The notes under the pieces: model-generated | What the model was told of the DNA's origin: nothing | The model's input: only the letters and a program-made list of their open reading frames with translations | Database searches by the model: none | Shown: positions 34,923-41,142 of the stretch, in pieces | Layout: every line of letters begins with the position of its first letter | How positions within the stretch are numbered: the first letter of the stretch is position 1 | Origin: Mycobacterium sp. | GTDB lineage: Bacteria; Actinomycetota; Actinomycetes; Mycobacteriales; Mycobacteriaceae | NCBI GenBank assembly: GCA_049608025.1 | Contig: JBMYXC010000013.1 | Direction: 5' to 3' (one strand) | DNA: 64,000 bases | Position numbers and translations under genes: made by a program

Positions 34923-35933
34923 TTACCAGGGGCCGTAGACGGCGCTGTTGGCCCGCCGCATCGTGCTGACGTAGTCCGCGCGTTCGTGTGCGGCCTCATC
35001 GGTGCCGATCGGGACCGCGAGCAGGCCACGAAACTCGTTGATGGCGGAGTAGCCCTTGCGGTCCATCCAGTCCCGCAATCCGGTCAGCAACACCGCGGTA
35101 TACGCCGGGCCATGGCGCAGCAGTGCAGACGCCGTCATCACCACATCCGCACCGGCCAGCAGATACTTGACCACTTCCGTCGAGCCCTCGACACCGGTGG
35201 TCGCGGCGAGCGAAGCGTTGATCCGCCCGTGCAGCAGGGTAATCCAGGTCAAAGGCAGCCGGGCCTCCGCAGCGCGCGACAGCGACGTTCCGCGCGCTAC
35301 AGCCAGTGTCTCGGGGTCGATGTCGGGCTGTAGGAATCGGTTGAACAGCACCAGCGCGTCGGCCCCGGTCAGGTCCAGGCGTCGCGCCATCTCAGCGGTC
35401 GCGCTGAAATAGGGGCTGAGTTTCACCGCTACCGGCACGCTGACCGCATCCTTGACCTGCGCCAGAATCTCGATGTGACGTTCTTCGAGGTCGCGACCGG
35501 AAATGTGGGAATCGCCAGGCAGCGAGTAGATGTTCAATTCGACTGCGGCCGCGCCGCAATCCTGCATCGACCGGGCGTATCGGGCCCAACTGCCGGGCGT
35601 ACTTGCGTTGATGCTGCCGATCACCGGAATCGAGACGGCCTCGACCGCGCGTTCCAGCAGGCTCAGGTACCGGCGCGGGCCGTGGTCGGTGCGTGCGGCC
35701 GCAGGGAAGTACGTCAGCGACTCGGCGAAGCTCTCCGACCCTGCCTCTGCCCGTTGCGCATCCTGCTCGGCCTCGCGCCGAAGCTGCTCCTCGAACAGTG
35801 AATAGAGCACCACAGCGCCGATCCCGGCGTCGGCGAGCTGTCGGACGCCGTCGACGGTCTGCGACATCGGGGACGCTGACGCGACCAGCGGATTGGCCAG
35901 TTGCAGGCCGAGATAGCGGGTGGACAGGTCCAT
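34923..35933 (-). CDS. Dihydroorotate dehydrogenase-like flavoprotein (DHOD-like; no catalytic Cys)
   Basis: YLGLQL.NPLVASASP, SLFEEQ, PVIGSIN, ELNIYS (in place of ELNxSCP), VAVKLSP, LFNRF.QPDID, ATTGV. Confidence 0.88.
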   Translation of the reverse strand: MDLSTRYLGLQLANPLVASASPMSQTVDGVRQLADAGIGAVVLYSLFEEQLRREAEQDAQRAEAGSESFAESLTYFPAAARTDHGPRRYLSLLERAVEAVSIPVIGSINASTPGSWARYARSMQDCGAAAVELNIYSLPGDSHISGRDLEERHIEILAQVKDAVSVPVAVKLSPYFSATAEMARRLDLTGADALVLFNRFLQPDIDPETLAVARGTSLSRAAEARLPLTWITLLHGRINASLAATTGVEGSTEVVKYLLAGADVVMTASALLRHGPAYTAVLLTGLRDWMDRKGYSAINEFRGLLAVPIGTDEAAHERADYVSTMRRANSAVYGPW

Positions 35934-39514: not shown

Positions 39515-41142
39515 GTCGGCTCCCCGAACATGTCGATGGCGTGCACCGGACACTGATCGGCGCAGATTGCGCAACCCGTGCACTTGTCGTAATCGAACCG
39601 ATAGCGTTGCCCTTCGCCGAGTTTGATCACCGCCTCCTCGGGGCAGGCACCCAGACAGCCATCGCACTCGAAGCAGTTCCCACACGACAGGCACCGCTGG
39701 GCCTCGAAAGTCGCCGCGTCTGCCGACAGACCGCCGACGACCTCCTGGAAGCCCTGCACCCGCGTCGTGCTTCCCAGTTCAGGCTGCCGACGTTGCGCGG
39801 CGTCACCGAAGTACCAGAGGTGCAAAGACTCGAACGTCGCGGTCGGATGTTTGGCCGGCCGCTCCGCCGACGACCCGCGCAGCCAGGCGTCGATGTGATG
39901 AGCGGCCTTCTTCCCGTGGCCCACGCCGACGGTCACGGTGCGTTCGCTGGGCACCATGTCGCCGCCGGCGAACACACCCGGACAGCCGGTCATCAGTGTT
40001 GACGAGACCCGCACGCTGCCGTCGGCTTCGAACTCCACTCCCGGCAGGGTTTGCATGAATGCCGACTCCGTTTCCTGCCCGACCGCCATGATCAGCGTGT
40101 CGGTAGCCAGGGTCTCCATCCGGCCGGTCGGCCGAGGGTGCCCGGACTCGTCGAGTTCCATGACCTCGACCTGGATTTCGGGACCGTCGAAGGCGGTGAT
40201 GGTGCGCAGCCAGTGGATTTGGACTCCCTCTCGCTCGGCGTCCTCGGCTTCCTCGGTGTGGGCGGGCATCTGATCGCGGGTGCGGCGGTAGACGATGACC
40301 GCGTCCTCGGCGCCCAGGCGGCGGGCTACCCGCGCGGCGTCCATCGCGGTGTTGCCGCCCCCGTAAACCGTGACGTGACGGCCGACGGCCGGTTCCTCGC
40401 CGGAGGCGACGTCGTGCAGGAACGACACCGCATCGACCATCGTGCCGGCGTCGCGCGCCGGGATATCGACGCGTTTCGCCAGATGTGCGCCGACCGCGAC
40501 GAACACCGCGTCGAAGTCGCCCTCGTCGCGCTCGGCCGCCAGATCCTCGACTCGATGATCGCAGGTCAACCGCACGCCCATCGCCGCGATCCGGTGCAGT
40601 TCGGCATCCAACACGTCGCGGGGCAGGCGATAGCTCGGAATGCCGTACCGCATCATCCCGCCGGGGGCCGCCTCCGCATCCCGGACCTCGACGTCGTGGC
40701 CGAGGCGCCTGAGATGGTAGGCGGCGGACAGGCCACTGGGGCCTGCCCCGATGACCAAGACGCGCTTGCCCGTGGGGTGCGGCGCTGCTTCGAACACCCA
40801 GCCACGCTCCCGGGCCAGGTCGCCGAGGAAGCGCTCCACCGAATGGATCGCCACGGCGGAATCGAGATGGGCTCGGTTGCAGGCAGTTTCACACGGGTGA
40901 TAGCAGACCCGACCGTGGATGGCGGCGAAGGGGTTGTCCGCGACGAGCTGACGCCATGCGGCTTCGTGCCGCCCGGCAGTAGCATGTGCCAGCCAGGCCT
41001 GGATGTTCTCTCCGGCCGGGCAACCGGCATTGCAGGGCGGCAGCAGATCCACGTACACCGGTCGGCGCGCGCGCACCGGGCCGGCTCGAGAGCGCCCATG
41101 GGCAAGATCGGCGAGTGGTGCGACGTCATCGGATCCGGTCAT
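39511..41142 (-). CDS. GltD/PreT-like FAD and Fe-S NAD(P)H oxidoreductase with C-terminal 2x[4Fe-4S] domain
   Basis: PPCNAGCPAG, GRVCYHPCETAC, IGAGPSGLSAA, GIPSYRLP, GGGNTAMD..YRR, RCLSCGNCFECDGC..ACP, CTGCAICADQCP. Confidence 0.9.
   Translation of the reverse strand: MTGSDDVAPLADLAHGRSRAGPVRARRPVYVDLLPPCNAGCPAGENIQAWLAHATAGRHEAAWRQLVADNPFAAIHGRVCYHPCETACNRAHLDSAVAIHSVERFLGDLARERGWVFEAAPHPTGKRVLVIGAGPSGLSAAYHLRRLGHDVEVRDAEAAPGGMMRYGIPSYRLPRDVLDAELHRIAAMGVRLTCDHRVEDLAAERDEGDFDAVFVAVGAHLAKRVDIPARDAGTMVDAVSFLHDVASGEEPAVGRHVTVYGGGNTAMDAARVARRLGAEDAVIVYRRTRDQMPAHTEEAEDAEREGVQIHWLRTITAFDGPEIQVEVMELDESGHPRPTGRMETLATDTLIMAVGQETESAFMQTLPGVEFEADGSVRVSSTLMTGCPGVFAGGDMVPSERTVTVGVGHGKKAAHHIDAWLRGSSAERPAKHPTATFESLHLWYFGDAAQRRQPELGSTTRVQGFQEVVGGLSADAATFEAQRCLSCGNCFECDGCLGACPEEAVIKLGEGQRYRFDYDKCTGCAICADQCPVHAIDMFGEPT

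Follow-up and report, generated by a model that had tools for sequence, protein, structure and literature searches.

The locus analyzed here is another member of a previously noticed kind of gene cluster built around pyruvate:ferredoxin oxidoreductase (PFOR), a central and ancient enzyme whose wide presence and activity in aerobes are puzzling. In Propionibacterium, a PFOR gene is co-transcribed with the two genes that flank it, the three are regulated identically at transcript and protein level, and knockout of the PFOR cripples growth; McCubbin et al. (2020) postulated, as a hypothesis only, an Nfn-like bifurcating complex that uses quinol (quinol + ferredoxin -> NAD(P)H, a confurcation) (PMC7650540). 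In Synechocystis, nifJ (sll0741), sll0743 and sll0744, the last named 'DHOD (fumarate)', lie under a single transcription unit, TU3296, and this unit is induced together with hox in microoxia (PMC11368403). Here we describe the triad in a stretch of 64,000 nucleotides from Mycobacterium sp. (assembly GCA_049608025.1, contig JBMYXC010000013.1; hereafter the window), where PFOR stands between the genes for an NfnB/GltD-like flavoprotein (GltDl) and for a protein resembling dihydroorotate dehydrogenase (DHOD), which we call DHODl. The three families and their order are those of Propionibacterium, but host and operon context differ, the window containing a phosphoenolpyruvate (PEP) synthase gene (ppsA), a trehalose-enzyme fusion and a Hox hydrogenase. 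The Synechocystis operon likewise has PFOR followed by a DHOD-named gene, but it lacks GltDl and holds an extra small open reading frame (ORF) between the two; judging by its name and its cyanobacterial relatives, and not by its sequence, sll0744 probably belongs to the DHODl family. The triad and the bifurcation hypothesis are already published. New here are the pairing of PFOR with DHODl across phyla, the restriction of GltDl to one clade, the permuted architecture of GltDl and the family-wide loss of the DHODl active site; neither the wider pairing nor the permuted architecture is part of PMC7650540.

Related enzymes offer further points of comparison. Stand-alone NfnB-like proteins are proven ferredoxin:NADP+ oxidoreductases (PMC12221290, PMC9365771), and many NfnB-like proteins do not bifurcate (PMC12221290). 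The Synechocystis PFOR, purified alone, works with ferredoxin; it is O2-stable and needed aerobically in vivo and is active in vitro only without O2, and its authors invoke unknown oxygen-consuming mechanisms (PMC8887894). In M. smegmatis, msmeg_4645/4646, a putative pyruvate- or alpha-ketoglutarate:ferredoxin oxidoreductase of the two-gene KOR/POR type and not of the NifJ type, is induced in hypoxia together with PEP synthase (PMC2799521). Our literature search found no biochemical characterization of the triad, of any protein of the DHODl family (PRK07565) or of sll0744, a gene named in no more than three papers. Pyruvate:NADP+ oxidoreductase (PNO) of Euglena and Cryptosporidium, with an NADP+-reducing flavoprotein module on a NifJ-type PFOR, catalyzes what we take to be the same net reaction as the one proposed below. 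In PNO, PFOR and a cytochrome-P450-reductase-type FMN/FAD domain form one fused polypeptide, whereas the modules of the window are separate proteins of unrelated families (NfnB-like and DHOD-like) beside an unfused PFOR. Added flavoprotein and ferredoxin-like subunits serve to reduce NAD(P)+ directly in Azoarcus PadEFGHI, the NAD+-dependent phenylglyoxylate:acceptor oxidoreductase, and in the NADP+-reducing 2-oxoglutarate oxidoreductase. These Azoarcus systems have multi-subunit 2-oxoacid:ferredoxin oxidoreductase (OFOR) cores, unlike the single-chain PFOR of the window, and we know of no DHOD-like subunit in them.

The triad consists of three tightly packed minus-strand ORFs, which lie where a preliminary description of this DNA had placed them and overlap one another as it had reported:

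39511..41142 (-): GltDl, NfnB/GltD-like iron-sulfur flavoprotein, FAD- and NAD(P)-binding, 543 aa, family PRK12771 (Pfam, NCBIfam)
35933..39514 (-): NifJ-type pyruvate:ferredoxin (flavodoxin) oxidoreductase (PFOR), 1193 aa (TIGR02176)
34923..35933 (-): DHODl, FMN-barrel protein with the fold of DHOD and dihydropyrimidine dehydrogenase (DPD), 336 aa, family PRK07565 (NCBIfam)

The end of GltDl and the start of PFOR have an ATGA in common at 39514..39511 (4-nt overlap), and the PFOR/DHODl junction is a TGATG with one common base at 35933.

To place the triad in a wider context, we scanned genomes with the DHODl alignment, taking one genome per species, and obtained 80 loci from more than 10 phyla (Actinomycetota, Gamma- and Alphaproteobacteria, Bacteroidota, Ignavibacteriota, Acidobacteriota, Verrucomicrobiota, Cyanobacteria, Chloroflexota, Planctomycetota, Calditrichota and others). 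At all but one of them the sequence reaches far enough upstream for a test, and in 78 of these 79 species genomes a NifJ-type PFOR gene of the same strand immediately precedes DHODl; the gap between the two has a median of about 54 nt and is no longer than 150 nt in 72 of the 78. The pair is also present at the cyanobacterial loci L042, L043, L045, L048 and L077. The sole testable locus lacking PFOR upstream is L029, from an Ignavibacteriota metagenome-assembled genome (MAG; 3050-4030), whose DHODl relative has 47% identity and is preceded by genes for a histidine phosphatase and a DUF1648 protein. Neighbour clustering around PFOR-DHODl recovered no other universally conserved neighbour. Adjacency as regular as this, in so many phyla, is not a matter of chance, and we regard PFOR and DHODl as a conserved core, the ancient, general layer of the module. 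A small ORF or a gap separates the two genes at L045 (9455-10001), L058 (9503-10001), L066 (9127-10001) and L075 (3646-6287), some of them cyanobacterial, which recalls sll0743 between nifJ and sll0744.

At 24 of the loci, GltDl immediately precedes PFOR; the gap has a median of about 17 nt, and the two genes often overlap by an ATGA. These loci come from Actinomycetota, Competibacteraceae, two alphaproteobacteria and some Bacteroidota, and one more Bacteroidota contig, L081, has this triad too. A neighbour-joining tree of 61 full-length PFORs separates those with a GltDl neighbour, as one clade, from those without, as the other; the Propionibacteriales loci L011 and L013-L016 fall into the clade of the window. 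Since the GltDl-neighbour PFORs form one clade while the PFOR-DHODl pair is general, the module has two layers, GltDl having been gained once by one PFOR subfamily and kept since, also across phyla. The co-occurrence analysis that the preliminary description had called for thus returns a conserved, co-evolving module. At the Acidobacteriaceae MAG locus L032 (11078-13518, plus strand), an NfnA-like (DHODB_Fe-S_bind) and an NfnB-like gene directly follow PFOR-DHODl, and beyond these lie a gene for a small ferredoxin and another OFOR, a multi-subunit one. This canonical NfnA+NfnB pair looks different from the GltDl of the window and is a second, independent link of the PFOR lineage to NADP(H). 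A Jatrophihabitans MAG locus (L005, 11017-16822, minus strand) has a second, ordinary NfnB/GltD-like gene convergent with the triad, whose product contains the full Fer4_20 domain but lacks a ferredoxin tail. An OFOR gamma/delta-type gene is close by, which makes this a further case, within one genome, of an OFOR with a GltD-like neighbour.

GltDl scores 777 bits against NCBIfam PRK12771 ('NAD(P)-binding protein', cutoff 516) over residues 12-540. Its Pfam domains are Fer4_20, Pyr_redox_2 and a C-terminal Fer4, and the Fer4_20 Fe-S domain together with FAD and NAD(P)H Rossmann domains assigns it to the NfnB/GltD-like family. The closest solved structures are the StnC-like chains 9bov_A and 8oh5_C and the NfnB chains 5jca_L and 4ylf_B, with E = 6e-70 to NfnB of Pyrococcus furiosus; the protein itself is identical to one from a 'Mycobacterium sp.' MAG. 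Its features are, in order along the protein:

40879..41040 (-): N-terminal Fe-S segment (PPC37NAGC41P ... VC80YHPC84ETAC88), five Cys, without the first CxxC of NfnB
40732..40749 (-): FAD-binding GAGPSG, residues 132-137 (motif and NfnB alignment)
40276..40362 (-): NAD(P)H site GGGNTAMD (261-268) ... YRRTR (285-289)
39682..39783 (-): permuted NfnB segment, residues 454-487 (RVQGFQEV...EAQRC484LSC487), corresponding to the N-terminus of NfnB and probably supplying the missing CxxC
39514..39675 (-): C-terminal PorD-like 2x[4Fe-4S] ferredoxin domain, C490/493/496/500 and C521/524/527/531

The N-terminal Fer4_20 match covers only model positions 30-112. HMMER pairs GltDl 454-502 with NfnB 12-58 and GltDl 460-493 with residues 540-574 of StnC-like chains, and the segment that opens NfnB, R-V-x-x-F-x-E-V...E-A-x-R-C-L-x-C, comes after the flavin domains in GltDl, as it does in StnC-like chains. 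By these alignments, GltDl is circularly permuted relative to NfnB. The tail holds two canonical CxxCxxCxxxCP motifs (residues 490-501 and 521-532) and scores 51.9 bits against TIGR02179 PorD_KorD, under the cutoff of 60. Conservation extends to all Fe-S regions: the N-terminal C37, C41, C80, C84 and C88 and the Cys of the ferredoxin domain are each kept in 17-18 of 18 orthologs and C484 and C487 in all 18, so that 15 Cys are kept in 17-18 of 18 orthologs from four phyla. By our count of ligands, these 15 could furnish four [4Fe-4S] clusters if, as is the case in NfnB and DPD, one ligand is not a Cys. The AlphaFold model has a mean confidence (pLDDT) of 65, with Fe-S regions below 50. The GGGNTAMD...YRRTR site lines up with the NADPH motif of Pyrococcus NfnB, and both features that the preliminary description had read from the letters, an own C-terminal 2x[4Fe-4S] domain and an NADP(H)-type site, are present. 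GltDl has the FAD/NADPH module, NADPH motif and NfnB-type Fe-S domain in common with NfnAB, Fnor and StnC (Sporomusa-type Nfn) enzymes, and it differs from the NfnB systems in its additional PorD-like domain, in its partners (PFOR and an FMN barrel) and in having no adjacent NfnA: no DHODB_Fe-S_bind/PyrK-like gene adjoins it, and the locus does not qualify as an NfnAB transhydrogenase.

DHODl scores 451 bits against NCBIfam PRK07565 ('DHOD-like protein', cutoff 303) over residues 1-330 and shares 74-92% identity with proteins of Mycolicibacterium and Mycobacterium. This is a large family (953 clusters at 50% identity, E < 1e-30), and its longer members contain no extra domains. Foldseek searches with the AF2 model (pLDDT 87.9) gave DPD domain IV and DHOD 1A as top matches, at TM ~0.7 and 19-20% identity, and no structure nearer than these; DPD domain IV is the best. 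Two segments set the protein apart:

35784..35801 (-): family-specific SLFEEQ (S45, F47 and E49 invariant), where DHOD has its FMN/substrate Lys
35523..35540 (-): loop ELNIYS, residues 132-137, with E132 and N134 conserved and the catalytic-base position not

We aligned 31 diverse members (36-54% identity) and found Y, F, D, H, V or S at the catalytic Cys/Ser position. The absence of the catalytic Cys, proposed earlier from the window protein, therefore holds across the family, though in the window protein a Ser could align there. The orotate loop NSMGLPN of DHOD is replaced by FAExxxYFP, and the SLFEEQ motif, W116 and R318 are new invariant residues. Retained positions of the FMN scaffold are E132, N134, K171, N198 and the Gly motifs (G247, G261). 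With the barrel fold, K171, N134, N198 and the Gly motifs kept, DHODl probably binds FMN. It begins at the first barrel strand, without a membrane/quinone-binding N-terminal domain of the class 2 DHOD kind, and having neither an Fe-S domain nor a conserved Cys it does not classify as PreA/PreT. Two PFOR-C-terminus::DHODl fusions on metagenome contigs, P0022 and P0117, were considered as a sign of interaction and set aside; both begin inside the domain that binds thiamine pyrophosphate (TPP) and probably arose through a frameshift or faulty gene calling where stop and start overlap by 1 nt.

The parallel with DPD is closer than the preliminary description had claimed when it likened the pair to PreT/PreA. 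Together, GltDl and DHODl hold the five domains of DPD (mammalian, or bacterial PreT/PreA) and match its cofactor set of FAD/NADPH, four [4Fe-4S] clusters and an FMN barrel. They differ from it in that the ferredoxin domain has moved to the flavoprotein from the FMN subunit, in the loss of the catalytic Cys and the pyrimidine-binding residues, and in the PFOR gene standing between the two genes.

The PFOR itself is complete, with 1648 bits against TIGR02176 (cutoff 911) and all NifJ domains in a single chain: POR_N, PFOR_II, POR (gamma), EKR, the 2x[4Fe-4S] domain V and the TPP-binding domain. It aligns end to end with the Moorella (M. thermoacetica) structure 6cin, and also with 1b0p, and ends about 15 residues past the 6cin-homologous core, without a C-terminal extension of the Desulfovibrio africanus type. 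It contains no flavodoxin or ferredoxin-NADP+ reductase domain and is thus not a eukaryote-type PNO fusion; against the PadG and PadI models it scores 110 and 33 (cutoff 700 for each). Only three residues tell triad-type from pair-type PFORs, namely A1039, P1059 and Y747, the last beside the second cluster motif of domain V:

37229..37432 (-): PFOR domain V, two [4Fe-4S] motifs, includes Y747

The order of the genes, their domains and cofactor motifs, conservation throughout the families and the co-evolution of GltDl with one PFOR clade lead us to the following proposal, to which we give a probability of roughly one half: GltDl links this PFOR subfamily to NAD(P)(H), and DHODl serves PFOR more generally as an FMN partner. 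In the general layer, this NifJ lineage comes with a DHOD/DPD-fold FMN protein that has lost its pyrimidine active site. DHODl would most likely dock near the distal [4Fe-4S] clusters of PFOR, on the model of the DPD FMN domain beside its ferredoxin domain, and would give the one-electron Fe-S chain of PFOR a two-electron flavin port. The analogy is that in DPD the FMN barrel takes electrons from the neighbouring 2x[4Fe-4S] domain, a part that PFOR domain V or the PorD-like domain of GltDl might play here. In the second layer, confined to one subclade, the NfnB-like GltDl would add FAD, an NADPH-type site and four [4Fe-4S] clusters, two of the NfnB type, completed by the permuted C-terminal segment, and two in the PorD-like domain, and would connect the electron chain of PFOR to NAD(P)+/NAD(P)H. 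The net reaction would be pyruvate + CoA + NAD(P)+ <-> acetyl-CoA + CO2 + NAD(P)H, with little or no need for soluble ferredoxin. Flavin occupancy, a physical complex, the route of the electrons, the reaction direction and nucleotide specificity are all predicted features of this scheme. The preliminary description had proposed a ferredoxin-free pyruvate:NAD(P)+ oxidoreductase complex, and the link of GltDl to NAD(P)(H) is the best-supported part of that proposal, because GltDl is an NfnB-type NADPH flavoprotein with a PorD-like domain, is translationally coupled to PFOR and restricted to one PFOR clade, and because a second link to NADP(H) exists at L032. Its view of DHODl as an electron carrier is plausible, but that of a mere carrier in a GltDl-dependent complex does not stand: DHODl accompanies PFOR without GltDl in most lineages, and its partner is therefore PFOR itself.

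The window is Mycolicibacterium-like, with 65% G+C, and the triad forms the tail of a longer, tight minus-strand run of ppsA, the trehalose-enzyme fusion, GltDl, PFOR and DHODl. Neighbouring features are:

44819..47215 (-): PEP synthase (PpsA), 4-nt overlap with the trehalose-enzyme fusion gene
41145..44822 (-): fusion of HAD (beta-phosphoglucomutase-like), trehalose-6-phosphate phosphatase and GH65 phosphorylase, 1225 aa
33643..34914 (+): enolase, convergent, stop 8 nt from the DHODl stop
28452..33652 (+): Hox-type NAD-linked [NiFe] hydrogenase (HoxEF fusion, HoxU, HoxY, HoxH, maturation protease), convergent with the triad

The stop of the fusion gene lies 2 nt ahead of the GltDl start, and ppsA is probably the first or second gene of the same operon as the triad; a PpsA gene also adjoins the triad at L007 and L023. 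A scan of the operon for promoters and terminators gave nothing over shuffled expectation, and when we looked for RNA-seq signs of co-transcription, the sequencing runs containing the window sequence were metagenome DNA runs only. The three-domain trehalose enzyme between ppsA and the triad is unusual, its GH65 part resembling trehalose, maltose or kojibiose phosphorylases. Directly upstream of ppsA, a 449-aa ORF (47258-48607, minus strand) has no Pfam or NCBIfam match; a relative (37% identity) adjoins the triad in Mycobacterium attenuatum (L007, 3440-4648). The HoxE (NuoE-like) and HoxF (NuoF-like) diaphorase subunits are one 627-aa protein (28452-30335, plus strand). Because HoxU, HoxY and HoxH score under the cyanobacterial equivalog cutoffs, we assign the enzyme to a divergent actinobacterial group-3 [NiFe] hydrogenase. 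The window also encodes a wax-ester synthase/diacylglycerol acyltransferase (48802-50175, plus strand), a phosphoglucomutase (61393-63102, plus strand), a carbamate kinase (26930-27919, minus strand) and an ArsR-family regulator adjoining an ArsI/CadI gene (20423-21329). Of these, the first three fit an island of the storage-carbon or hypoxia type that surrounds PFOR and Hox, and the ppsA/trehalose-enzyme operon next to enolase and Hox fits a hypoxia or storage-carbon redox island as well.

Two arguments drawn earlier from this neighbourhood have to be revised. A six-frame scan of the window found no free 2x[4Fe-4S] motif beyond PFOR, GltDl and Hox, and the annotated ORFs include no ferredoxin or flavodoxin, as the preliminary description had observed, a flavodoxin or 2Fe-2S protein in the unannotated gaps not being strictly excluded. 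As an argument for a ferredoxin-free complex, this absence has no weight, because pair-type loci, which lack GltDl, also rarely encode a ferredoxin nearby: a ferredoxin gene is close to 9 of 56 pair-type and 2 of 24 triad loci. Ferredoxin genes are thus no regular neighbours of the pair-type loci, being rare around both types, and the window, a small part of a genome of ~6 Mb, says little on ferredoxin genes elsewhere. In the Verrucomicrobia/Kiritimatiellota group, DHODl is closely followed at two pair-type loci by a ferredoxin-like CxxCxxCxxxCP ORF of 64-69 aa (L024, 11019-11225, plus strand; L026, 11960-12151, plus strand). The second argument was that NAD(P)H from the triad feeds Hox. Such a feed is possible, but its dependence on GltDl is not upheld: Hox genes lie within 10 kb of PFOR-DHODl at 8 of 80 loci in several phyla, and because most of these lack GltDl, the Hox link belongs to the PFOR-DHODl core or to ferredoxin and not specifically to NAD(P)H made by GltDl. 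Nor is the NADPH-type motif of GltDl a simple match for an NAD-type Hox diaphorase.

Several points weigh against the module as we have drawn it. The Bacteroidota GltDl branch has GGGKLAMY...YxGDxK in place of the NADPH-type motif (family alignment, window residues 261-289), because of which nucleotide preference may differ between branches. The equivalent of K43, the FMN Lys of DHOD A, is not conserved in the DHODl family. Triad-type PFORs have no clade-specific docking insertion, only the three discriminating residues, and the support for a putative three-protein complex is indirect, from synteny, overlapping genes and the co-evolution of GltDl with its PFOR clade. GltDl could equally well be a soluble ferredoxin:NADP+ reductase that uses free ferredoxin encoded elsewhere. 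A loose operon without any complex, which we hold to be possible but rather doubtful, is one alternative: PFOR would reduce ordinary soluble ferredoxin encoded elsewhere, GltDl would be a free ferredoxin:NADP+ oxidoreductase whose ferredoxin domain merely improves electron uptake, DHODl would be a separate FMN reductase acting on a substrate of its own, and co-regulation alone would hold the genes together. Precedents are the stand-alone NfnB-like Fnor enzymes that use free ferredoxin (PMC12221290) and the activity of the purified Synechocystis PFOR with ferredoxin (PMC8887894); the missing docking insertion agrees with this reading, and the acidobacterial L032 places a canonical NfnAB, which needs free ferredoxin, beside PFOR-DHODl. 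The near-universal adjacency of PFOR and DHODl over more than 10 phyla, with its frequent stop/start overlaps, is however more like that of subunits than of co-regulated genes, and the limitation of GltDl to one PFOR clade argues for co-adaptation.

A different complex, bifurcating or confurcating in the manner of McCubbin et al., we judge unlikely. Here the FAD of GltDl would split the electrons of NAD(P)H into a low-potential branch, the Fe-S chain of PFOR (acetyl-CoA + CO2 -> pyruvate), and a high-potential branch, the FMN of DHODl passing them to quinone, fumarate or another acceptor; in reverse, pyruvate and a high-potential donor would yield 2 NAD(P)H. NAD(P)H alone cannot thermodynamically drive pyruvate synthesis, and ppsA in the operon and enolase next door match that direction. 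In Nfn and Stn, the subunits that bifurcate are the closest solved relatives of GltDl (NfnB and StnC-like chains), DHODl would stand in for NfnA, and the idea has been put forward for Propionibacterium (PMC7650540). Against this, DHODl mostly occurs with PFOR in the absence of GltDl, because of which its primary role cannot be that of a GltDl bifurcation branch; it also lacks the N-terminal domain of class 2 DHOD, and many NfnB-like proteins are non-bifurcating (PMC12221290). Were such a triad real, an improbable case, it would let (micro)aerobes make or oxidize pyruvate without a low-potential ferredoxin pool, with DHODl as the missing accessory of PFORs under oxygen. Improbable too, and a shade more so, is that DHODl is a protective or overflow accessory for PFOR in oxygen-exposed cells, its FMN either relieving the PFOR clusters of electrons, with O2 or something else as the sink, or keeping the clusters reduced, with GltDl a later add-on. 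Many DHODl-linked PFORs do sit in aerobes or facultative organisms (cyanobacteria, mycobacteria, Terriglobia, Chitinophagaceae, Isosphaeraceae, Competibacteraceae), the oxygen behaviour of the Synechocystis enzyme (PMC8887894) would suit this role, and the window PFOR lacks the protective extension of D. africanus; yet the family also lives in anaerobic lineages (Anaerolineae, Omnitrophota, Calditrichota, propionibacteria), and the argument is purely correlative, drawn from DHODl-linked PFORs only. The ordinary annotation, by which a glutamate synthase small subunit and a pyrimidine dehydrogenase flank PFOR by chance, has in its favor that relatives are named 'glutamate synthase' and 'dihydroorotate dehydrogenase (fumarate)' in source entries, and is effectively refuted. 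DHODl stays under every equivalog cutoff for PyrD (PRK07259, 83.5 against 269; TIGR01037, 73 against 270) and PreA (PRK08318, 67.6 against 335), its catalytic base and orotate motif are missing family-wide, GltDl reaches 212 against 483 (TIGR01318) and 184 against 448 (TIGR01317) for the GltD models with no GltB-like large-subunit gene adjoining, and the synteny of DHODl with PFOR is near-universal. That DHODl is no normal pyrimidine enzyme, as the preliminary description had supposed, is thereby confirmed.

The more interesting finding lies outside the framing with which this locus was first described: a DHOD-fold FMN protein is the near-obligate partner of a whole PFOR lineage, and the partnership probably reaches the model cyanobacterium Synechocystis (sll0744). 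If the coupling of PFOR to DHODl, and in one clade to GltDl, is true, families now called 'glutamate synthase' and 'dihydroorotate dehydrogenase' in many entries would have to be re-annotated, and textbook pyruvate oxidation and synthesis would gain an extra component in mycobacteria, propionibacteria, cyanobacteria and abundant soil and wastewater bacteria. The function of PFOR under oxygen would then become testable.

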